From: Barnesiella intestinihominis
GTDB lineage: Bacteria > Verrucomicrobiota > Kiritimatiellia > RFP12 > UBA1067
Direction of reading: 5' to 3'
Length of the DNA: 39,079 nucleotides
NCBI GenBank assembly: GCA_963612485.1
Contig: CAVDWI010000001.1
Span: forward strand, 1 to 39,079
Shown piece by piece: positions 25,187-35,367 of the stretch; the first letter of the stretch is position 1; each line of letters begins with the position of its first letter. The position numbers and the translations under genes were made by a program. A model generated the notes under the pieces. The model worked only from the letters and a program-made list of their open reading frames with translations, was not told the origin of the DNA and ran no database searches.

Positions 25187-28100
25187 TTATTCCGATTCGT
25201 AGGTGTTGTTCGCCTTCAGGACGGGCACGGCGAACGGAATGAGGTCCGTGTCGATGCTCCACCTGAAGAACATGTTCGTCGTGTTCGGGTAGTTGCTCCA
25301 CCCGTAGCCGTAGCCCGGCGAGAGCGTCGAGAACGGGTCGATGATCTCGATGCGGGCGCTGAAGTTCTCGTCGAACGAACCCGGCCCGAACGTGAACTGG
25401 CGGAACGGCAGGTAGCCCTTGTTCTTCGAGCCTTCCTGACCCATGCCGTTCACGTCGAGGGCGGCGCGGACCTTGAACGTCACCGACGTCCACATATTGC
25501 CCGTGAAGGTGTCGCTCTGCTCGTTGTTGACGCCCTGCAGGCGGCAGGGCGCAGAGGCCGCACCGCCCGCGACCGCGTTCGTGATGTAGAGCGTGACGCC
25601 GACGATCCGGTTCGTCAGTTCGTGCGCAACGCCGCCGTATGTCCGCGTGATGACGTGCGTCTCACCCTGGATGTTCGACATGTCGCCGCGCAGCCACCAC
25701 TCGCGCTCGCCCGACTCGGTGACCGGCGGAATGTCGAGCCAATACATCTCCGTGAGGCCGAGATCGACCGTATCCGCCGTTGCACTGAGGCCGCGGTAGT
25801 AGGCGAGGCGAATATCCTCCGCCGTCTTGTCGGGCCAGTTCGCCCGCAGCCAGTTGAGCACGGCGGGCGTGTAGACGTTCTTCTCGTCGAGCCCGAAGTC
25901 GTTCGCGAGGCGGTTGTCGACTCCCTCGCGCGCCTCGACGATGTGGGTCTGACCCGTCGGCGTCACCGTGTGCACATACGTGCCGGGCCTGTTCACGGCG
26001 TTCGTGACGCCGTTCTCGGTGAGCACGGCGAGTTCGTACCACGGCTCGGCGGTGTAGGTGACGTTCGTCGAGATGCCCTGCGGCACGATGACGACCGCCG
26101 AACGGTTCGTCTCTCCGCCGATCGCCTGCGACAGGTGCTCGCCGATGACGTTCAGGTAGACCCAGGCGTTCGTCCCGTTCGGGCGGATGAGCCACCCCTC
26201 GGGAATCGTCTGTCCCTCGTTGATCGTGCCGGGGGTAAAGGTGAGGCCACTCTTCCACGTCCCCTTCGCACCGGGCGCGGGTTCGCCCGTCGCCGTGCCG
26301 CCCGTCACGCCCGCCGAGCCGTAGAGTTCGCCGCTCGTCCGCCGCGCCAGTTCGTCGCCCGCGTAGAACCGCAAGGGCGAAGAATCCGCCGCGTTGAGTT
26401 CGGCAACGAGATTCGTGCCGTCGAATCGGGCGCCAATATCCCAGACAGACCATATGTTCGTCCCCGACAGCACGAACTGATGCTCGATGACGCCGGAGGG
26501 ACGGATCAACTCGAACTGGTAGGGCATACTGTAACTCAGGCTGCCCTCATCCTGAGCGTTCTCGAAGAGATTGGTCGGCCACGTGCCGAGCGAGACGTCG
26601 CCCGCCGCGAGATGCGTCCAGTTGGTGACGCCGCCCGCGTCACGCGACTTCGGGCTTTGCAGAACGACGAACTCGTAGCCGCTCACCGCCTTCGTCGTCA
26701 CGGTTGTCGCCGGCACGGTGACGCCGAAGCGGGCGAGCGTCTTCTCGCCGTTCTGGTTGTTCCTCACGCGGACGCGCCAGCCGTTCATGTCCGCCCCCGA
26801 CGGGACGCAGATCTCGATGAACTGGTTCGTCTCGCACCGCACGCCATCGGTCTCACTCGCCCTGCCGTCGTTCCAGTTCACCTCGTTGATCCAGGCGCGA
26901 CCGGGGCTGACCGAGTCGAGGATCGTATACGCCGAATACCTGCTGAAGTCCTCCGAATCGTAGCCGCCCGTACCCGTGCCGTTCTTGTCGATCGGGTAGT
27001 ACCAGGTCGGCTGCGTCCAGCTCGACATCAGCGACTCGTATTCGCGGCCGCCGCGGTCGTAGTAGGTGACCTTCAGCATGAACTGCACGAACACCCCCGC
27101 CTTCACGGCGGGCGGCACAAGCTCGGCCGGCGTCGTGCCGACGCTGCGGAAGATGAGGTTCGTCGCGTCGCCGACCTGCGTGAGCTCGATATCCGTCACC
27201 GCCGACGCGAGATCCTTCCAGTTGTCGTAGCCCCACGGCGTATCGCCCGAATAGTAGGAGAGCGAAACCTTCAGGCCTCGCGAAAGATCGACTTCGTCCG
27301 CCAGCTGCTGCAACGTGAGCTGCGCCTGAACGCCCCAGCTCTCGCCCGCGAGCGGCTGTTCGTTCGCGCTCAGGATGTCCGCCACCGGGTCGGTGGACAT
27401 CAGGTTGTTGCGGAACGGCCGCGCATAGACGAACGCGAGGGTCGGCTGAACCTTCTCGCCGACGAAGATCTCGTCGAGAATCACGCGGTCGACCGGTGCC
27501 GCCGTCGGCGCGACTTTCTCATCGAGCGACGCCCCCGTTATCTCGAACTTCACCGCGTAGTACGATTCGCTCCCCGCCGTCCACGAGAAGTCCGAGAAGA
27601 CGGGACTCGTCACCGCGTTCGTGAAGATCGGCACCCACTTGCCGTAGAGCGGGTCGGTCGAGCCGTAGCCGATGACCTGGCCGCCGCCGGTCGTCTGCGC
27701 CGAATCCTCGTAGAGACGCGCACGGTAGGTCACGCTGCCGATGCCGACGCGCCCCGCGACGTTCGTCGAGAAGGTCGGCGAATACACCGCCGGATAGCCG
27801 CTCACGACCCGCGTCATGTCGTCGTCCGTCTCGAGGTCTTCCGGCCACACGCCGTTGTTGAGACCGCAGACGAGACCGTAGCCCTCGCCGCCCGTCTGCG
27901 TCATGTCGGCGAGATACATCCGATGCTCGAAGTCGAGCTCGTCGCCGACCGTCCGCATGTTCCAGCCGCGCCAGCTACGTTCCGAAATGCCCGGCTCGTC
28001 CGTCACCGTGATGCCGGTGATGGTGATGCGCCCGTAGTCGAGATTGGGCGTCGAGTTCGTCGCCGCCGCAAGCGCCGCCGTGACGACGTTCGTCGGCACG

Positions 28101-31100
28101 AGCAGGCGGAAGACGCCCCTCACGGGTCGGTCTTCGTTGTTGTGCCAGCCAAGGTAGATGACCTTCGTGCCCGTGCCGTTCGTCGCTAGCACGCTGTCCC
28201 CCTCATAGCCCGCGCTCGCGGGGCCGAACTTACGAATCGTCGTCCACTGCCCCGCACCCGTACCCTCGATGAGAGAGGAATTGAGGATGCTCATCTGCCG
28301 CGAGACGTCGTTCGTCGCGACCTGCACCCAGATTTCGGCGTTCGTATCCGCCCCGCTGTAGGTGAACGCGAACTTGCCGAGACCCGCGAGCAACGGCGAG
28401 CGCATCGACACGGGACTCGTCGTCAGCGCCCGCGACGGCTGCAGGATGACCTCGCGGACGGAACTCGTCTTCTGCGTCACCACGCCCTGCGTGTAGATGA
28501 AGTCGCTCTGGCTGTTGTAATAAGGGGTCTCGAGATTCGGGGCCTGCCACTGCGTCTGGATGATGTCGTCCACGACAACGTCCACGGACTGGTCGTCGCC
28601 CGTCTTGAGCCGCAGGTCGAACGTACCCGTGCGGTGAACCGGCACCGTCCGCTTGTCCGAGAAGGCGAAGCCCGAAACGGAGACGGCATCCTGCAGCGTC
28701 CACTGATTCGCGCCCTTCGGGCTCAGCCAGACTTCCAGGTTCTGCACGAGGTTGGTCGGCGTCCGCAGACCATACAGGGGATACGACCCAGACGTTGTGC
28801 TCACATCGTTCGTGAAGTACTCCGTCCGTCCCGGAATCTTCGACCAACGCCGCGTCGTCAAGTCGGACTGGTCGAGGCTGTAGTCGTTCAGCCCGAGGTT
28901 GACGTTCGTCTTGAATACGCCGCCGCTCGCCGCCGATCGAATGTTCGCCGCGTCCGCCAATACATGACCCGTCTCGGTGTGCGACAGCAGGACAAACCGC
29001 GCAGGGCAATCCTTCGCTCCCACGCCGAACGCGCCGCAGTCATACGGCGAGTCCGAATCCGTGTAGATCAACCCCGAATGTTCCTCCCCGGAGAAGATTG
29101 CGACATCATGATTCGAGGAATTCATAAGCTGCGGTTTGGTCGAGAGGCCGCAGATGATCTCCGTGCCGCCGTCGGTGCCGTCACCGCAGGAGATGAACGC
29201 ACCGTAAAACTTACCCGCGACATCAGTGTCCGTCCCGTCCTTCACCCACGCCGAGGAACTCACGTAGGTGTAGGCGAGCCGCGTACTCGTCGAGTTGCCG
29301 CCGGTCGCGGATTTCCACTTGTAGAGTTCGAGCAGCAGCGACGCAGACGTCCCCTTATACGGCCGCGAGATGCGGAACTCGTAGCACCCGATGCTCGGAT
29401 AGTAGTAGGCGACGAGCGAGACGGAGGCCCCGACCGCCATGTCGCCGATTTCCGTGCCGTCCATCTTGCAGCTGCGGCTCATGACGAGCGGCGCGTGGAA
29501 GACGTAGTTGTCGCTCACCATCGCGTCCATCCGGCAGCTGAACGAGTCGAACGTCATCGACTGGCCGATGCGCGTCTTGAACTGCACCTCGCCGAGCCCG
29601 GACGGCGTATTCGCCGACGTGAACTCGAGCACGCCGCTGCCATTGCCGAGCAACTTCGCCGCGAGACCGCCCGACTTGTTCACCGCGTTGGATGTGACGA
29701 GGCTCTCGCCCACCCACGAGACGTTCTGCGCCGCCCAGCCGTTCGGCGTCGTCGTGCGCTGGTAGACCACGTCCTTCGGATAATCCGGGACGGTGTAGTC
29801 CTGAAGATAGAACGTCTCGTTCCAGCCGGCGTTCGTGCTGACGTAGGTCGCCCAGTTCGAGAAGTTGTTCGTGTAGGTCTGCATCGCCGCGTAATCGACG
29901 GAGTTCGTCTCGGCGTAGTTGATCTTGAACTTCGTGCCGGCGGCGGCGTCGTTCCAGTGGTTGAAGTCCTGGTATTCCGCACGGGTGATGGCGTAGGTCT
30001 CATAGCGGTCGTTCAACTTGAACTCGAGGTAGTTCGCCACGTTGTCGGGCGTCACCCAGCCGTCGAGCGTGCCGCCCCGCACGATCTTGCCCGTGGCGGG
30101 CACGTCGTTCGTCGCCGCCGTGGCGACGCCCCACGCAATCGCCTCGGGGTCGGACGGAATCTCCGTCGCGCCGGCTTCGAGTTCGTTGAAGCCCTCGAAG
30201 TGGAAGCGCACCGTCTCGGAGGTGTTCGTCGGCACGAGCACGAGCGCCCGCCAGGTGTTGTCCGCGATCAGCTCCATGTCGTAGTCGCCCGCGATGCCGC
30301 CCGCCGTGCCGCCCTCGAGCACGACCCGCATCGACGCCCAGTTGCTCGCGCCGCGCCTGAGGCGCACGAACCAGTCCGTGCCGCCGCTCGCGAGCCGCTG
30401 GTTCCCGAGCCCCGTCAAGTCCATGCGGTTCGTCACCGCCCGCAGTTCCTCCGTGTAGTCGCCCGTCGGCTTCGCCACCCCGCACCCCGAATAGTCCTGG
30501 TACGAGTAGAACGGCGCCTGCAGCGTGAGGTCGTAGAAGAACTCGATGTCGCCCTCCGCCGCCGGGAACGCGAGCGGCTCGATTGACCGGAAGCCGTTCT
30601 CTATGTCGAGGAACACCGTCTTCCAGTTGTCCGTGTCGTCCGACCCCTTCGCCGGACTGAACCGCTGGTTCAGGTAGCGCCACCGGTAGTTGAGCCGGGC
30701 GGACGCGATGAAGTTCGTATCCGCAATCGCCACGCCCGGCGTCACCACGTTCGTCGCCGTCGCCCGCGCATACACCTCGGTATCGGACGCGGACGGGAAC
30801 GGAATCGAGAACGCGCACTCCTGGCCGAGCGTCTGCTTGCCCATCTTCGTCTCGTCGTAGTAGCCAATCGGACTCAAATCCGCATACATCGCCGGCGGCG
30901 ACGCAATGATGTTGTCGAGAAGAAGAAAATATTGATATGCGTCGTCAGCAGAAGTAGTCGAACTCGTTCGCCGAATCCTGAATCGAACGGGTCCGCGGAC
31001 GTTCACCTCCGCAATACCGCGCACGAACTTATCCGTCTTGCCGCCACCCGAAAAACCGAGCAAGTCGAGTTCCGTGCGCTTTTCCTGCGCCTCGAACTCG

Positions 31101-34015
31101 GCCGTCCCCTCGGCCGTCCCGTTCTTGACGAGCGGCAGAATGGAGACTGCCCGCCACTGATTGCGCACCTTCCAGTAAGGGTCCTCCTCACCCAGCGTAT
31201 TCGCGCCGGCGCAGTTTTCATCCGTCGGCGGCAAGCCCTCCTCCGTCTCGGTGGCGATTTCCACCACCAACTTAAAGTCCTCGGCATTGCCTCTATATCC
31301 ATTCACCGCATCGAAGTAGACAACTCCAATGCCATTCGTGTAACAGGGCGAGTAAACCGCCGCCTCCGTCGTATTCCGCAGAACGATATTGCCGACTTCC
31401 TCATTCGCATCCGTCCGCGTCGGAAACGCCTTGGTTTCGGACGAAATCGACTTTGATGTACTTGACCACGGGAGGTAGTTCGCGTAACTATACGTTTGGG
31501 GACCCCTGATGAAAATGTTACCAATCAGTCCATTGGCGATATGCCACAACCGATTTGTCTTATCCCCTTCCGCTGAATATAAGGTATGATGAATGCCGGC
31601 AAGTAAATACGCATAATTTCTGTGAGCATTATGAGTCTCACTGCTATGTTCCCAGAAGATGGAATGTCCCGTGGCGGCAGTCTGCCAGTAGCCCTGGTCG
31701 GTGATGGCGTCGCGCCCGTCGCCGCCCGTGTCGTCGTTGACGAGCAGAATGCGGCCTTCCGCCGTCGCCCCGACCGACGACACGGGCGAATGACCGAGAA
31801 TCTCGAACGCCAGCCGACGCTCGCCGCCGAGAAGCGCGTAGTCCGCGCCCATTCCCGCCATCGTCAGCACCGCCCGATAGGAGCCCCGCACCGTCGGCAT
31901 CGCGTCCAGTTCCGTCCCGCTCGGCAGCTTCTGATAAGTTACCTTGACCGACCCGACCTTCAGTTCGCCCGCCGAAATCACGCCCGCCGTCTCGCCTTCA
32001 TCCCATGTCGTCTTCGTGATGGAAGGTTCTGTCGTCCAGTAGTTGATCCACACGCCGTTGCTGCAGACGAGCCCGTAGCCCGTCGCGGCAGTTCCAGCGG
32101 AAAGACTCGCCGCGCCCGCATCGTTCGCGCTCGTCGGCTCGTCCACGCCCGCGTGCCAATACATCCGAATCGGACTCGCCGCCCCCACCCCGCTCGGCAG
32201 GAGGACGCGCATCGTCGATTCGCCCGACACGTTCCACGTCAGGTTCGAATACGGCAGAAGAATGTCGTGGAGCGGGTCTGTCGTCGGCGAATAGACGAAT
32301 CGGAAGGCGTTGTTCTTCAGCCCGTCCGTCCGGTCGTAGAGAAAGCCCGGCAGACCCGATTCCGAAACCGTGATATCGACCGCCCCCGCCGTCGCGGCGT
32401 TCGTCACGTCGATGTAGTCGGTGTATTCCGCCGACGGATTCCGCCACACGCGGAATGTCGCCGTCGCGCTCGCCCCCTCCCAGTTATCCGCCTCCGCCAG
32501 CGTGGCGCGGACGGTGTACCGTCCCGCCGCCGTCGGCGGTGTCCGCGTCCAGTCGGTGGAGGATTCGGGGCAATACTCATAGTAGATGTCGCCGATTAAG
32601 CCGTAGGTGACCGAAGAAACGGACGGCGAGGAGACGGTTGCCCCCGTCTGCCAGTCTTCAATCGACAGCCCCGTGATTGCGTTCGCCGCCTTCTTAATCG
32701 TCCAGTCGCAAGAAATCGCGTCGGTCGTCCCGTCGTCCGCCCACACGCGGTTGGTAATGCTCGCGCTGTTGCCCTTCAGAACCGCCGCACACGTGTAGTC
32801 GCCCGCGTTCGTCGCCTCGGGCGTTCCCTTGCGGTCGTAGTCGTCCGACTCTTCAAGGGCGACGCGCACCACCCCCGTCTCATAGGTGAACTCCGTTGCG
32901 AAAGTTGGGCGGGCGACAGTCTGCCGCGCAATCGACCAGTTGTAGGATCTCGGTTCGGTCGTTCCATCCGACCATTCATACCCTTCTTCGTTGAGCGTCA
33001 CGGTGAACGAATAGCTGCCCGTATCCGTCGCCTTATCCGAACCCGCCGTAACCGTATAGAACGCGCGGTTCGGATCATTCGGGTCAAATGCGGACTGCTC
33101 TTCGCCGTTGTAGACGAGATCTTCGTAGACAGTCGGGGGCGTCACGCCCGAATCGAGGTAGGCGGTAATGCGCACAATCAGGACACCGCTACCGCCCTTG
33201 CCAGCAACGGCAGTAGCATGTGTACCGCCGCCACCGCCGCCGCCACCGAGACCATCAGTGCCATTCACGAGTTCAATATCATCTGCGGAGACAGCAGTAC
33301 GGCCGCCGAGACCCTTACCGCCACCGCCCTCACCGCCGAAGCTCTTACCGGTCATCGAGGCGTAAAAATTGCCGCCGCCGCCACCACCACCGTAGAACAC
33401 GCTTTCACCGGTGATGTCGCTCGCAATGCCATCACCGCCATTGGCTCCGCTGATGGTGCTCGTTGGCGCGACACCAGCAGCCCCCGCACCGCCACCGCCG
33501 CCACCGCCGTAACGAAATGCACCGTCACCACCTTTATTTCCTTGACCAGTTGTCCCAGATCCTCCACTCTGTGCAACATCGGCAAGCATCGAACCGCCGC
33601 CGCCGCTACCGCCTTCCAAGCCCGCACATTCAGCACCACCGCCGCCGCCACCCTTGGCAACGGCAATGACCGCCGAACCGTCCTGAAGGAAAGAAGTGTC
33701 GCCGCCCGTAGTTCCCGGATTGCTGACTTTCGAGCCGTACGCACCAGCCTCGCCACCCGCGCCGACCGAAATCGTATACGTGCCGCGCAAGGATATGTTG
33801 TCCGCGATGACGACGCCACCGCCACCGCCACCGCCGCCACCGCCGGGACCGAGCGTCAATTTCGTCACGCGCCCGCCGCCGCCGCCGCCGCCAACCGCGA
33901 GAATCCGCGCCGACGCCGTCTTCGGCAATTTCAGTTTGCCGACCGTCGTCGGGTCAGAATAGGTGATGACGAGGTCGCCTTCCACCCAGTTCGTCGTGCC
34001 GCCCTCGAACACCAC
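25187..34015 (-). CDS. Giant secreted protein (at least 2,942 aa) with an N-terminal glycine-rich domain, MBG-like Ig repeats, a large beta-rich body and a lamin-tail-like domain. The true start is probably the ATT at 34123 (see findings).
   Basis: An uninterrupted ORF. The ORF-track start is GTG at 34013..34015, but the 36 in-frame codons upstream encode a textbook signal peptide. The glycine-rich domain and the lamin-tail-like (LTD) domain are annotated separately. The repeated pattern Y-x-G...G-x-Y-x-V-x-A...W-x-I resembles MBG-type repeats (for example GSYSFTVTLNEEGYEWSDG...YNWSI and AGDYTCAAVLKGN...CDWTI). Confidence 0.88.
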   Translation of the reverse strand: MVFEGGTTNWVEGDLVITYSDPTTVGKLKLPKTASARILAVGGGGGGGRVTKLTLGPGGGGGGGGGGVVIADNISLRGTYTISVGAGGEAGAYGSKVSNPGTTGGDTSFLQDGSAVIAVAKGGGGGGAECAGLEGGSGGGGSMLADVAQSGGSGTTGQGNKGGDGAFRYGGGGGGGAGAAGVAPTSTISGANGGDGIASDITGESVFYGGGGGGGNFYASMTGKSFGGEGGGGKGLGGRTAVSADDIELVNGTDGLGGGGGGGGTHATAVAGKGGSGVLIVRITAYLDSGVTPPTVYEDLVYNGEEQSAFDPNDPNRAFYTVTAGSDKATDTGSYSFTVTLNEEGYEWSDGTTEPRSYNWSIARQTVARPTFATEFTYETGVVRVALEESDDYDRKGTPEATNAGDYTCAAVLKGNSASITNRVWADDGTTDAISCDWTIKKAANAITGLSIEDWQTGATVSSPSVSSVTYGLIGDIYYEYCPESSTDWTRTPPTAAGRYTVRATLAEADNWEGASATATFRVWRNPSAEYTDYIDVTNAATAGAVDITVSESGLPGFLYDRTDGLKNNAFRFVYSPTTDPLHDILLPYSNLTWNVSGESTMRVLLPSGVGAASPIRMYWHAGVDEPTSANDAGAASLSAGTAATGYGLVCSNGVWINYWTTEPSITKTTWDEGETAGVISAGELKVGSVKVTYQKLPSGTELDAMPTVRGSYRAVLTMAGMGADYALLGGERRLAFEILGHSPVSSVGATAEGRILLVNDDTGGDGRDAITDQGYWQTAATGHSIFWEHSSETHNAHRNYAYLLAGIHHTLYSAEGDKTNRLWHIANGLIGNIFIRGPQTYSYANYLPWSSTSKSISSETKAFPTRTDANEEVGNIVLRNTTEAAVYSPCYTNGIGVVYFDAVNGYRGNAEDFKLVVEIATETEEGLPPTDENCAGANTLGEEDPYWKVRNQWRAVSILPLVKNGTAEGTAEFEAQEKRTELDLLGFSGGGKTDKFVRGIAEVNVRGPVRFRIRRTSSTTSADDAYQYFLLLDNIIASPPAMYADLSPIGYYDETKMGKQTLGQECAFSIPFPSASDTEVYARATATNVVTPGVAIADTNFIASARLNYRWRYLNQRFSPAKGSDDTDNWKTVFLDIENGFRSIEPLAFPAAEGDIEFFYDLTLQAPFYSYQDYSGCGVAKPTGDYTEELRAVTNRMDLTGLGNQRLASGGTDWFVRLRRGASNWASMRVVLEGGTAGGIAGDYDMELIADNTWRALVLVPTNTSETVRFHFEGFNELEAGATEIPSDPEAIAWGVATAATNDVPATGKIVRGGTLDGWVTPDNVANYLEFKLNDRYETYAITRAEYQDFNHWNDAAAGTKFKINYAETNSVDYAAMQTYTNNFSNWATYVSTNAGWNETFYLQDYTVPDYPKDVVYQRTTTPNGWAAQNVSWVGESLVTSNAVNKSGGLAAKLLGNGSGVLEFTSANTPSGLGEVQFKTRIGQSMTFDSFSCRMDAMVSDNYVFHAPLVMSRSCKMDGTEIGDMAVGASVSLVAYYYPSIGCYEFRISRPYKGTSASLLLELYKWKSATGGNSTSTRLAYTYVSSSAWVKDGTDTDVAGKFYGAFISCGDGTDGGTEIICGLSTKPQLMNSSNHDVAIFSGEEHSGLIYTDSDSPYDCGAFGVGAKDCPARFVLLSHTETGHVLADAANIRSAASGGVFKTNVNLGLNDYSLDQSDLTTRRWSKIPGRTEYFTNDVSTTSGSYPLYGLRTPTNLVQNLEVWLSPKGANQWTLQDAVSVSGFAFSDKRTVPVHRTGTFDLRLKTGDDQSVDVVVDDIIQTQWQAPNLETPYYNSQSDFIYTQGVVTQKTSSVREVILQPSRALTTSPVSMRSPLLAGLGKFAFTYSGADTNAEIWVQVATNDVSRQMSILNSSLIEGTGAGQWTTIRKFGPASAGYEGDSVLATNGTGTKVIYLGWHNNEDRPVRGVFRLLVPTNVVTAALAAATNSTPNLDYGRITITGITVTDEPGISERSWRGWNMRTVGDELDFEHRMYLADMTQTGGEGYGLVCGLNNGVWPEDLETDDDMTRVVSGYPAVYSPTFSTNVAGRVGIGSVTYRARLYEDSAQTTGGGQVIGYGSTDPLYGKWVPIFTNAVTSPVFSDFSWTAGSESYYAVKFEITGASLDEKVAPTAAPVDRVILDEIFVGEKVQPTLAFVYARPFRNNLMSTDPVADILSANEQPLAGESWGVQAQLTLQQLADEVDLSRGLKVSLSYYSGDTPWGYDNWKDLASAVTDIELTQVGDATNLIFRSVGTTPAELVPPAVKAGVFVQFMLKVTYYDRGGREYESLMSSWTQPTWYYPIDKNGTGTGGYDSEDFSRYSAYTILDSVSPGRAWINEVNWNDGRASETDGVRCETNQFIEICVPSGADMNGWRVRVRNNQNGEKTLARFGVTVPATTVTTKAVSGYEFVVLQSPKSRDAGGVTNWTHLAAGDVSLGTWPTNLFENAQDEGSLSYSMPYQFELIRPSGVIEHQFVLSGTNIWSVWDIGARFDGTNLVAELNAADSSPLRFYAGDELARRTSGELYGSAGVTGGTATGEPAPGAKGTWKSGLTFTPGTINEGQTIPEGWLIRPNGTNAWVYLNVIGEHLSQAIGGETNRSAVVIVPQGISTNVTYTAEPWYELAVLTENGVTNAVNRPGTYVHTVTPTGQTHIVEAREGVDNRLANDFGLDEKNVYTPAVLNWLRANWPDKTAEDIRLAYYRGLSATADTVDLGLTEMYWLDIPPVTESGEREWWLRGDMSNIQGETHVITRTYGGVAHELTNRIVGVTLYITNAVAGGAASAPCRLQGVNNEQSDTFTGNMWTSVTFKVRAALDVNGMGQEGSKNKGYLPFRQFTFGPGSFDENFSARIEIIDPFSTLSPGYGYGWSNYPNTTNMFFRWSIDTDLIPFAVPVLKANNTYESE
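26650..26900 (-). other. Lamin-tail-domain-like (LTD) segment in the 2,942-aa protein
   Basis: AWINEVNWNDG...NQFIEICVPSGADMNGWRVRV...GYEFVVLQS resembles the LTD pattern (INEV..., EFIELxN..., dLsGW..., ...yvVl). Confidence 0.5.
33165..33907 (-). other. Glycine-rich domain (runs of G6-G10) at the N-terminus of the 2,942-aa protein
   Basis: The segment runs RILAVGGGGGGGRV ... GPGGGGGGGGGGVVIADN ... AKGGGGGG ... YGGGGGGGAGAAG ... YGGGGGGGNFY ... GLGGGGGGGGTH ... GKGGSGVLIVRI. This is the layout of the glycine-rich domain found in phage fibre-like and bacterial surface proteins. It is encoded by GGN/GCC trinucleotide runs, for example a perfect (CCG)6 at about 33873..33892. Confidence 0.7.
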
Positions 34016-34118
34016 GTCTTCCGCCAGCCCGCCGGACGCGACAAGTGAAAACCCGACCGCAAACGCCGCGAACAGCGTCTGCCGGATTTTCGACGGGGCG
34101 AAAGGTTTGAAGAACTTT

Positions 34119-35120
34119 TTAATCTTTTAACTCCTTGTAGGTCTGCCCGTCAAAGGCAACGTCCTTGCCCTCGCAGAGTAGCGCCGTCAACTGGGCGGCG
34201 GATAGCCCGCCGCTCTCCACCCAGGTGATCTTCGCCGCGTGTCCGTCGGCATAGGCGACGTGACCGACGAAACTGCGCTTGCCGAGTCGGTGGTTGAAGC
34301 CGATCGATTCGGCTGTTCCGCCCCAGCTCGAGCCGTAGGTTCCGCTGTCCACCGTGGCGCGATACTGCAGGGTGCAGTCCGCCACCGCACCACTCTCATC
34401 CGACACCGGGCTCGTCGTCTGGCCCTCGATCTTCCACATCGGCAGTTCCGCGAACATCAGCGTGCGGTCGGCGCGCGAGAGGTTGCCGTAGCGGATGCCA
34501 CCGCCCACCGCGCGCGAGCCCTCCGAATAGTCGTAGCCGAACTTCGAATTCATCACGTAACTCCAGTAGGGCGCCGTCATCTTCTTGTCCTTGCGATACC
34601 GCACGTGCGTCGGACACGTGTAAATCGAGCGGTTCTTGCCCGTCGCCTCCCAGATCGCCCCGTTCGTGATGGCGAACGTCGTGTCATCCTCGTTCGCCGC
34701 GCCGTAGAACGGACAGACGTCGAACGCCTTGTAGCTCGGCTCATAGCCATTACCCGACTCCTTGTGGAACTCGGAGTCTTTCGAGAGCCAGTTGATCCAG
34801 CCCCGCGCCTCGAAGTAGCCCGTCTTCGCGCCGACGATGCCGACGTATTCGTAGGCCCCCGCCGCCGGATACCAGCCGTTGCGCATGGCGGTGGCGTTCG
34901 CGGCCTGCGCGAGGCTCTTCATGTTCGAGAGGCATTGCGCGGCGCGGGCGGACTCCGTCGCGCCGCCGAACGCGACCGCCATCACGCCGGCGAGAACGGC
35001 GATGATGCCGATCACCACGAGAAGCTCGATCAGCGTAAACGCGGCGCACGAACGGCGGCGCAATCTCGCCGCACGGTCGAAATTATTCAAGGGCATAGTC
35101 ATCCTTACTTTCATTATCAT
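34119..35120 (-). CDS. Prepilin-type N-terminal cleavage/methylation-domain protein (DUF1559/H-X9-DG-like pseudopilin)
   Basis: AFTLIELLVVIGIIAVLAGV is the class III signal / N-methylation motif. ESARAAQCLSNMKSLAQA matches the DUF1559-type helix, and the C-terminal FNH...GHVAYADGHAAKI is H-X9-DG-like. The probable start is the ATG at 35096 (MPLNNFDRAARLRRRSCA|AFTLIE), with an AAGGA ribosome-binding site 6 nt upstream. The ORF-track start at 35120 coincides with the predicted transcription start. Confidence 0.85.
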   Translation of the reverse strand: MIMKVRMTMPLNNFDRAARLRRRSCAAFTLIELLVVIGIIAVLAGVMAVAFGGATESARAAQCLSNMKSLAQAANATAMRNGWYPAAGAYEYVGIVGAKTGYFEARGWINWLSKDSEFHKESGNGYEPSYKAFDVCPFYGAANEDDTTFAITNGAIWEATGKNRSIYTCPTHVRYRKDKKMTAPYWSYVMNSKFGYDYSEGSRAVGGGIRYGNLSRADRTLMFAELPMWKIEGQTTSPVSDESGAVADCTLQYRATVDSGTYGSSWGGTAESIGFNHRLGKRSFVGHVAYADGHAAKITWVESGGLSAAQLTALLCEGKDVAFDGQTYKELKD

Positions 35121-35125
35121 TACGA

Positions 35126-35155
35126 ATTATAGCACAACCCGCCCGTCCGTTGCAA
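35126..35155 (-). promoter_or_regulatory. Strong sigma70-like promoter at the head of the 33-kb block (TTGCAA, 18-nt spacer, TGcTATAAT)
   Basis: On the minus strand the -35 is TTGCAA (35150..35155) and the -10 is a perfect TATAAT (35126..35131), separated by 18 nt. The -10 is preceded by a TGn extended element. The predicted TSS is about 35118..35120. Confidence 0.55.
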
Positions 35156-35228: not shown

Positions 35229-35367
35229 AGACAGGATTGACAGGATTGACAGAATTCTGGGGTCGGTTATTTTTGACGCAAAGAGCGCAAAGGATGTTGA
35301 CGCTAAGAGCGCAAAGCCTTTGCGTCCCCTTTGCGTCAAAACCTTTGCGCTCTTTGCGTTGAAAACC
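35229..35367 (-). repeat. ~140-bp GCAAAG-motif repeat, copy B; inverted partner of 1476..1607
   Basis: See copy A. This copy carries one extra caggattga unit and seven or eight (A/G)CGCAAAG motifs in both orientations. It lies about 75-240 nt upstream of the -35 of the block promoter. Confidence 0.8.

Follow-up and report, generated by a model that had tools for sequence, protein, structure and literature searches.

A giant secreted-protein gene of a gut bacterium probably starts at an ATT codon that overlaps the stop codon of the pseudopilin-like gene upstream

The stretch of DNA analysed here, called the window below, comprises 39,079 nucleotides of contig CAVDWI010000001.1 (GenBank assembly GCA_963612485.1, recorded as Barnesiella intestinihominis and placed by GTDB in the Kiritimatiellia). 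Its minus strand carries a gene for a pseudopilin-like protein, followed directly by a giant gene whose product contains a Gly_rich_2 domain and is listed among the open reading frames (ORFs) of the window as a 2,942-aa protein starting at GTG 34015. Comparison of this junction with those of related genomes leads us to propose, at a probability of roughly 0.85, that translation of the giant Gly_rich_2 protein begins not at GTG 34015 but at an AUU codon, 34123-34121. The upstream start would add a Sec-type signal peptide to the protein and would place the start codon across the stop codon of the pilin-like gene.

Results

On the minus strand, the 3' end of the pilin frame reads TAC AAG GAG TTA AAA GAT TAA, and the giant frame over the same region reads TAA (34129-34127), AAG (34126-34124), ATT (34123-34121), AAA AAG TTC TTC AAA CCT ... 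GCG GAA GAC GTG (34015-34013) GTG TTC GAG. The ATT and the pilin stop codon TAA (34121-34119) have one T in common, which by gene coordinates is a 5-nt overlap, ATTAA. Neither the window nor two related sequences, G015 and L056, have an ATG, GTG or TTG after the in-frame TAA and before residue 37, and the sole other near-cognate codon between the ATT and GTG 34015 in the window is an ATC at residue 13. The original prediction, made from the letters of the window by themselves, had described this start site, and its description was verified on the minus strand: the 36-codon extension upstream of the GTG holds no canonical start, its first sense codon is AAG and the next ATT; a Shine-Dalgarno (SD) sequence, AAGGAG, lies exactly 7 nt upstream of the ATT, at 34136-34131; and the ATT overlaps the pseudopilin TAA by 1 nt, the shared T at 34121.

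Assuming that ~5% of codons are ATG, GTG or TTG, a run of 36 codons with no canonical start has a chance of ~0.16 and is not rare by itself. AAGGAG occurs in the genome at a frequency of 3.9e-4 per position, which gives a chance of ~0.002 that one is found 5-9 nt before a given codon. The 16S rRNA 3' end, GGATCACCTCCTTTCT, contains the canonical anti-SD, and SD cores before the ATG of long ORFs with a high G+C content at third codon positions peak at -12/-11, exactly the position that AAGGAG occupies relative to the ATT of the giant gene.

The N-terminal extension read from the ATT is IKKFFKPFAPSKIRQTLFAAFAVGFSLVASGGLA, followed by the predicted cut and EDVV. A calculation of charge and hydrophobicity displayed the following features: (i) a net charge of +5 in residues 1-15, (ii) a 15-residue hydrophobic core, LFAAFAVGFSLVASG, with a mean Kyte-Doolittle value of 1.95, and (iii) the residues G-L-A before the predicted cut, which places small residues at -3 and -1 and predicts cleavage before Glu35. 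A lipoprotein signal is not indicated, because the extension contains no Cys. The whole protein read from the ATT has 2,978 residues and begins (M/I)KKFFKPFAPSKIRQTLFAAFAVGFSLVASGGLA, continuing with EDVVFEGGTTNW. The charged n-region, hydrophobic h-region and small -3/-1 residues of a Sec-type signal peptide, as originally described, were thus recovered by this heuristic calculation, and the protein started at the GTG, which had been said to lack a signal peptide, was found to have no hydrophobic N-terminus.

Relatives of the junction were sought in 117 genomes of the same genus, in a collection of 5.8 billion proteins and in the contigs behind those proteins; scans of Joint Genome Institute (JGI) metagenomes with protein patterns and DNA patterns found no relative. 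The orthologous junction was recovered from ten independent assemblies. Nine of these, gut Kiritimatiellota/Verrucomicrobiota metagenome-assembled genomes from about five species of the genus, have the ATT: the window, G015/CAVFWY01, ERZ15610001, G129/CAVAHB01, G115/CAKTUI01, G098/JBNMKZ01, ERZ15610064, ERR10690082 and ERZ4561846. The arrangement common to all nine is TACAAGGAG-YTR-AAAG-ATT; AAGGAG keeps its 7-nt spacing, and each has a stop in the giant frame, TAA or TGA, two codons ahead of the ATT. TGA belongs to the G115/G098 group, whose pilin uses CTG for the Leu. Two metagenome-assembled genome records bearing the pilin/giant locus are labelled 'Faecalibacterium sp. CAG:74' and 'Gemmiger sp.' (L052, CAVAHB010000061.1, and L053, CAVFWY010000011.1); these organism labels look wrong, because a genome search puts both in the genus of the window.

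The five codons that follow the ATT vary among relatives (AAA AAG TTC TTC AAA; AAC AAT TTT CTA AAA; ACT AAC ATT TTG AAG; AAC AAT TTT CCG AGA), and the residues from the ATT are IKKFFKPF in the window and G015, INNFLKPF in ERZ15610001, ITNILKPF in the G115/G098 group and INNFPRLF in G129. Farther on, FAPSK, the hydrophobic core and SLVASGGLAED are conserved, and the extension contains zero indels or stops. Across its 34 codons, the ratio of nonsynonymous to synonymous substitution rates (dN/dS) was 0.12-0.71 in 14 of the 15 pairs; as judged from these alignments, the divergence of the extension is that expected of a signal peptide. An alignment of orthologues had been set beforehand as a test of the ATT, and in it the stop-AAG-ATT arrangement and AAGGAG are kept while the codons that follow diverge. 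Likewise, the claim that the upstream peptide is maintained at the protein level agrees with the signal-peptide architecture seen in all relatives and with dN/dS values mostly of 0.1-0.7. Two outcomes named in advance as unfavourable were looked for. The first, a canonical downstream start in orthologues combined with no conservation upstream, was not seen, as GTG 34015 is lost in relatives and no canonical start is common to them; the second, a sequencing error, is excluded because nine independent assemblies have the ATT arrangement.

Translation from GTG 34015, or from the GTG adjacent to it, would yield a cytoplasmic protein of 2,942 aa and leave the 36 codons as untranslated spacer. It is the start that the ORF caller returned, P0001 was called likewise, and open frames are cheap in DNA of 62% GC. 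We nevertheless consider it highly improbable. GTG 34015 is replaced by GTT in G115, G098, G129 and L055, and G129, which has GTT-AAG here, retains neither of the adjacent GTG codons. No SD-like motif precedes GTG 34015, and the product would have the non-hydrophobic N-terminus noted above. The peptide upstream of the GTG, moreover, keeps its signal-peptide architecture in all relatives, and the more distant orthologues all have a signal peptide ahead of the conserved N-terminal motif described below.

A start inside the extension that differs from lineage to lineage, at ATC 13 in the window, TTG codon 6 in G115/G098 and ATG codon 17 in G129, would reduce the ATT to a conserved Asp/stop of the pilin. 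Such codons are indeed present, each would leave a hydrophobic N-terminus, and gene callers selected an internal TTG or ATG in P0002, P0004 and P0006. They are, however, never common to lineages: the TTG at codon 6 is confined to the G115/G098 group and the ATG at codon 17 to G129, and ATC 13 is ACC in the others. They also lack an SD at a usable distance, the TTG being 19 nt from AAGGAG, and the window, G015 and L056 have no canonical internal option. In addition, the pilin Asp codon stays the minority codon GAT (20% usage) in every ATT lineage and is GAC only in the ATG-bearing L055, while nearby Asp codons flip between GAC and GAT. Internal starts of this kind are therefore judged very unlikely.

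The tenth junction is an ATG variant. P0003 (Logan ERR10140887, L055 1085-1115) reads TAT AAA GAA CTA A followed by ATG ACG ACT AAT TTT CCG AAA CCT TTC. The ATG occupies the codon that is AAG in all others, so that it immediately follows the in-frame TAA and precedes the ATT position by one codon; the ATT itself has become ACG. The protein from this ATG begins MTTNFPKPFAPSK and retains an equivalent signal peptide. The SD has changed from AAGGAG to AAAGAA, which is silent in the pilin frame, and the pilin is two codons longer (N-D-D-stop; AAT GAC GAC TAA), resulting in an overlap of 11 nt. In the tree of full-length proteins P0003 is sister to P0002 plus P0004, inside the ATT clade, and a tree holding all ATT rows together was rejected (approximately unbiased test, p-AU 1.9e-8). 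This nested position implies that ATT is ancestral for the clade. Read from these sequences, the ATT is a codon kept over ~0.6 changes/site of protein divergence and replaced once, by a neighbouring ATG. The pairing of ATT with a perfect SD and of ATG with a decayed SD fits what compensation between start strength and SD strength predicts, as a single event.

In the sister clade (MKTKLIEIL...) and in more distant members of the genus, the protein has an ATG, a signal peptide and then the motif (F/V)(E/D)GG(T/E)TNW-V-(D/E)G-(D/E)L, and the ATT of the window aligns with the sister-clade Met. The more distant species G016 (L042/L010) and G022 (L006) have a pilin homologue (52% identity) directly upstream of a Gly_rich_2 giant; in G016, where the start was worked out, it is an ATG after a spacer of 20-40 nt. 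Because this distant species has a spacer and an ATG, the ATT overlap is, on the present comparison, derived, an older pilin-giant gene pair having been compacted.

The overlap also raises the matter of programmed +1 frameshifting close to the 3' end of the pilin gene, at AAA-G or GAT-TAA, which would fuse pilin and giant protein in the manner of prfB and turn the predicted signal peptide into an internal hydrophobic segment. Read from the pilin, the giant gene does lie in the +1 frame; as in prfB, an SD-like sequence lies shortly upstream of the in-frame stop codon; and the pilin stop is preceded by the rare codons TTA, AAA and GAT. Several observations argue against it, and we attach almost no credence to a frameshift: (i) a TAA or TGA in the giant frame, two codons ahead of the ATT, limits the frameshift window to at most two codons, (ii) tRNA-Asp on GAU is unable to re-pair on AUU, so that the re-pairing codon of prfB has no counterpart, (iii) the spacing from SD to P site is 6-7 nt, optimal for initiation, whereas stimulation of the prfB type needs a spacing of ~3 nt, (iv) no slippery motif is conserved, the pilin stop being shifted 3 nt in G115/G098 (GAT TAC TAA, overlap 8 nt) and the site rewritten in L055 (AAT GAC GAC TAA), and (v) where the pilin is separated by a spacer of 20-40 nt or is absent upstream, the orthologue stands free, with an ATG and a signal peptide of its own.

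A further possibility is that the giant gene has lost its ATG and is an untranslated pseudogene in decay. The lack of a canonical start before the signal peptide would accord with this, but the orthologues, of 2,973-3,089 aa, are intact in every full-length copy, so that an ORF of roughly 2,980-3,060 codons has stayed uninterrupted across ~0.6 protein changes/site, and the genes have preserved their order (pilin, giant, 140 aa, 4,010 aa). We regard decay as scarcely credible.

Codon usage in the pilin gene bears on the AUU start as well. Its last codons are rare in the genome (TTA 0.2% of Leu, AAA 15% of Lys, GAT 20% of Asp), and these three codons (34122-34130, minus strand) coincide exactly with the spacer between SD and start plus the ATT itself. 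Because the rare codons fall precisely there, the pattern suggests that the 3' end of the pilin gene has been shaped by selection from the overlapping initiation site.

Genome-wide, SD-preceded ATT codons were not enriched in ORF leaders (1.8% against a background of 2.5%; 9% against 8% with a laxer SD), nor was ATT enriched among 5-nt overlaps of the NNT-stop type. Five other cases of an ATT-stop overlap have a canonical start 2-5 codons downstream. With no genome-wide excess of ATT, the ATT of the giant gene would be a one-off in this genome, not a habit of the lineage. The only other credible non-canonical start noticed is that of infC (IF3, TIGR00168, 203 bits; C69:7709-8228, plus strand, of the same genome, L060). 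This gene has no ATG, GTG or TTG before the conserved N-terminal domain, and its first canonical codon, a GTG, lies inside the conserved IRVPQVRVL segment; its start is likely the ATC at C69:7722, which has AAGAGG 6 nt upstream, and such a start fits the classical arrangement of IF3 autoregulation.

Several points weigh against initiation at the AUU. The nine ATT assemblies amount to an effective sample of only about four lineages. AAGGAG and ATT lie within or across pilin codons (Lys-Glu and Asp-stop), and part of their conservation is possibly driven by the pilin. One pair of extensions has a dN/dS of 1.33, and the third-position bias of the extension is modest, with 8, 10 and 13 variable columns at codon positions 1, 2 and 3. 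The signal-peptide call is a hand-made calculation of charge and hydrophobicity and heuristic only. The predicted RNA accessibility of the start site, 0.50 against 0.32 for background, is within the background range and was not used as evidence. Lastly, an ATT start in Escherichia coli is put at ~0.3% of ATG (Hecht, 2017, as cited in PMC10666635).

In the wider locus, the Gly_rich_2 domain (PF21722) was matched at residues 67-319 of the giant protein (Pfam, E 3.5e-15), and the pilin-like ORF matched Pfam N_methyl (E 1.2e-6); NCBIfam matches of the latter to GspG/GspH N-termini were below the cut-offs. The pilin-like gene is directly upstream of the giant gene in all members of the clade. On the 3' side of the giant gene, the window has an ORF of ~147 aa and then a protein of 4,010 aa that combines TSP3 repeats with a LamG domain. 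The resulting four-gene block (pseudopilin, Gly_rich_2 giant of ~3,000 aa, ~140 aa, TSP3/LamG protein of ~4,000 aa; 12657-35120 in the window) has an order common to relatives (L057, L058, L059). In L057 and L059 the block is preceded by a protein with a Flg_new domain. Other members of the genus have many paralogues of the Gly_rich_2 giants, up to ~20 matches per genome.

In a consensus scan of the minus strand, the pilin and giant genes had no terminator-like site between them, and a promoter-like site was seen only ahead of the pilin gene; Rfam returned no known RNA family at the junction of the two genes. Upstream of the candidate pilin promoter, a long palindrome at 35279-35356 forms a strong inverted repeat; both of its strands match microRNA precursor models far below the gathering scores (mir-8186, 33.7 bits against 80). 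Coordinates are collected in Table 1.

Table 1. Features of the pilin-giant locus in the window.
Feature	Position	Strand	Remarks
Proposed ATT (AUU) initiation codon	34121..34123	-	Same site in nine assemblies, always right after stop-AAG
Shine-Dalgarno sequence AAGGAG	34131..34136	-	7 nt before the ATT; within pilin codons Lys-Glu
In-frame TAA closing the giant frame two codons before the ATT	34127..34129	-	Pilin Leu codon TTA plus the next A
GTG taken as start by ORF callers, residue 37 from the ATT, rejected here	34013..34015	-	Lost in relatives; no hydrophobic N-terminus
Remainder of the predicted Sec signal peptide, residues 2-34, KKFFKPFAPSKIRQTLFAAFAVGFSLVASGGLA	34022..34120	-	Charge/hydrophobicity calculation; h- and c-regions kept in relatives
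Giant secreted-protein gene, proposed corrected extent	25187..34123	-	2,978 codons from ATT 34123, plus stop
Upstream pseudopilin-like gene, 333 aa	34119..35120	-	Prepilin-type N-terminal methylation motif
Promoter-like site TTGCAA, 18-nt spacer, TG-n-TATAAT	35126..35155	-	Upstream of the pilin gene; consensus scan only

Discussion

In the mechanism that we propose, the pilin-like and giant genes would be co-transcribed. AAGGAG within the last pilin codons would hold the ribosome and set the initiator tRNA on the AUU 7 nt downstream, whether that ribosome was newly recruited as a 30S subunit or had finished translating the pilin, at its TAA, immediately before. The product would begin fMet-KKFFK..., its 34-residue Sec signal peptide would be cut after SGGLA, and the protein would be exported. 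Since AUU is a poor start, one discriminated against by IF3, output of the giant protein is probably low and tied to translation of the pilin. Termination-reinitiation is plausible because the stop and start codons share a base, so that a terminating ribosome would already be over the SD and the AUU.

The closest precedent for the proposed ATT start is that of ebpA, which encodes a pilus tip adhesin of Enterococcus faecalis. Its ATT start was proven by mutagenesis, the annotated ATG lying 120 bp downstream; in lacZ fusions the ATT gave ~3.5-fold less expression than ATG, and this codon, conserved in all strains, was proposed to determine how much of the minor protein is made relative to the major pilin (Montealegre et al., 2015; PMC4447247). 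Both genes encode a large surface protein in a pilus-type cluster, and in both a start at the canonical codon ~110-120 bp downstream would remove the signal peptide. The two proteins are not homologous. EbpA belongs to a Gram-positive sortase pilus, whereas the giant gene accompanies a pseudopilin like those of type IV pili and type II secretion systems (T2SS) in a diderm bacterium of the Planctomycetes-Verrucomicrobia-Chlamydiae (PVC) group; the ATT of the giant gene, unlike that of ebpA, overlaps the upstream stop codon and has its SD inside the upstream gene; and the start of the giant gene is proposed from sequence comparison, not proven by mutagenesis. A low giant:pilin ratio tied to pilin translation is a reasonable expectation, drawn from two things, the geometry of the overlap and the ebpA precedent (PMC4447247); a role of the junction in coupling and dosage is what we infer from them.

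The classical AUU starts are those of E. coli infC and pcnB, and IF3 is known to discriminate against AUU and AUC (PMC5499595, PMC2268962). As with these two genes, the giant gene would have a non-canonical AUH start (H being A, C or U) that is preceded by an SD, is conserved across species and is expected to be sensitive to the level of IF3. In infC, however, the codon serves autoregulation of the very factor that reads it, and feedback logic of this kind is inapplicable to a secreted giant protein.

With regard to the overlap, coupling by termination and re-initiation requires that the genes overlap or lie very close together (Huber et al., 2023; PMC10666635), and an SD lessens the inhibition of re-initiation by IF3 (PMC2268962). 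Like the coupled pairs of Huber et al., the pilin and giant genes lie on the same strand and overlap by a few nt, with the start beside the stop and the SD in the upstream gene. The common overlap classes, -4 (ATGA) and -1 (TAATG), have canonical starts, whereas the giant gene overlaps by 5 nt through an ATT, a figure that rises to 8 nt in G115/G098 and to 11 nt in the ATG variant. Overlaps of -5 nt are possible only with ATT (ATTAA, ATTAG, ATTGA), and annotated ones were blamed on annotation errors and/or rare non-canonical starts (PMC10666635). The pilin-giant junction is, by the comparison presented here, a conserved and phylogenetically supported example of the 5-nt ATTAA overlap.

One may go further and suppose that the ATTAA junction was selected as an obligatory coupling device, in which ribosomes would re-initiate in place on the AUU with the help of the strong SD and essentially no independent initiation would occur. 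Giant proteins would then be made in a fixed and very low proportion to pilin subunits, such as a single tip or anchor protein for each fibre. Only ATT would allow this shared-base geometry, because no stop codon can begin with the last base of a canonical start. We hold this stronger proposal to be doubtful. Were it true, the junction would give the 'forbidden' -5 overlap class its first natural case documented by phylogeny and explained in function, with ATT/perfect SD versus ATG/decayed SD as its evolutionary signature.

Rare ATT starts are already known, and the giant gene would be a further case that opens no new mechanism. It adds a well-supported instance of AUU initiation, in an uncultured, non-model organism and kept across several species, and a concrete instance of the ATTAA overlap class that surveys had ascribed to errors of annotation or to rare starts. 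The switch to ATG, accompanied as it is by loss of the SD, provides a natural 'experiment' that fits a trade-off between start-codon strength and SD strength. There is also a consequence for annotation, in that gene callers limited to ATG, GTG and TTG truncate the giant protein: its orthologues in databases begin at three different codons, wrong on the reading proposed here (MVFEGG..., MKPFAPSK... and MLFAAAAV...), and two of the three lose the signal peptide wholly or partly. Through a mis-called start, an exported surface protein of ~3,000 residues in a gut bacterium can hence pass for a cytoplasmic one.

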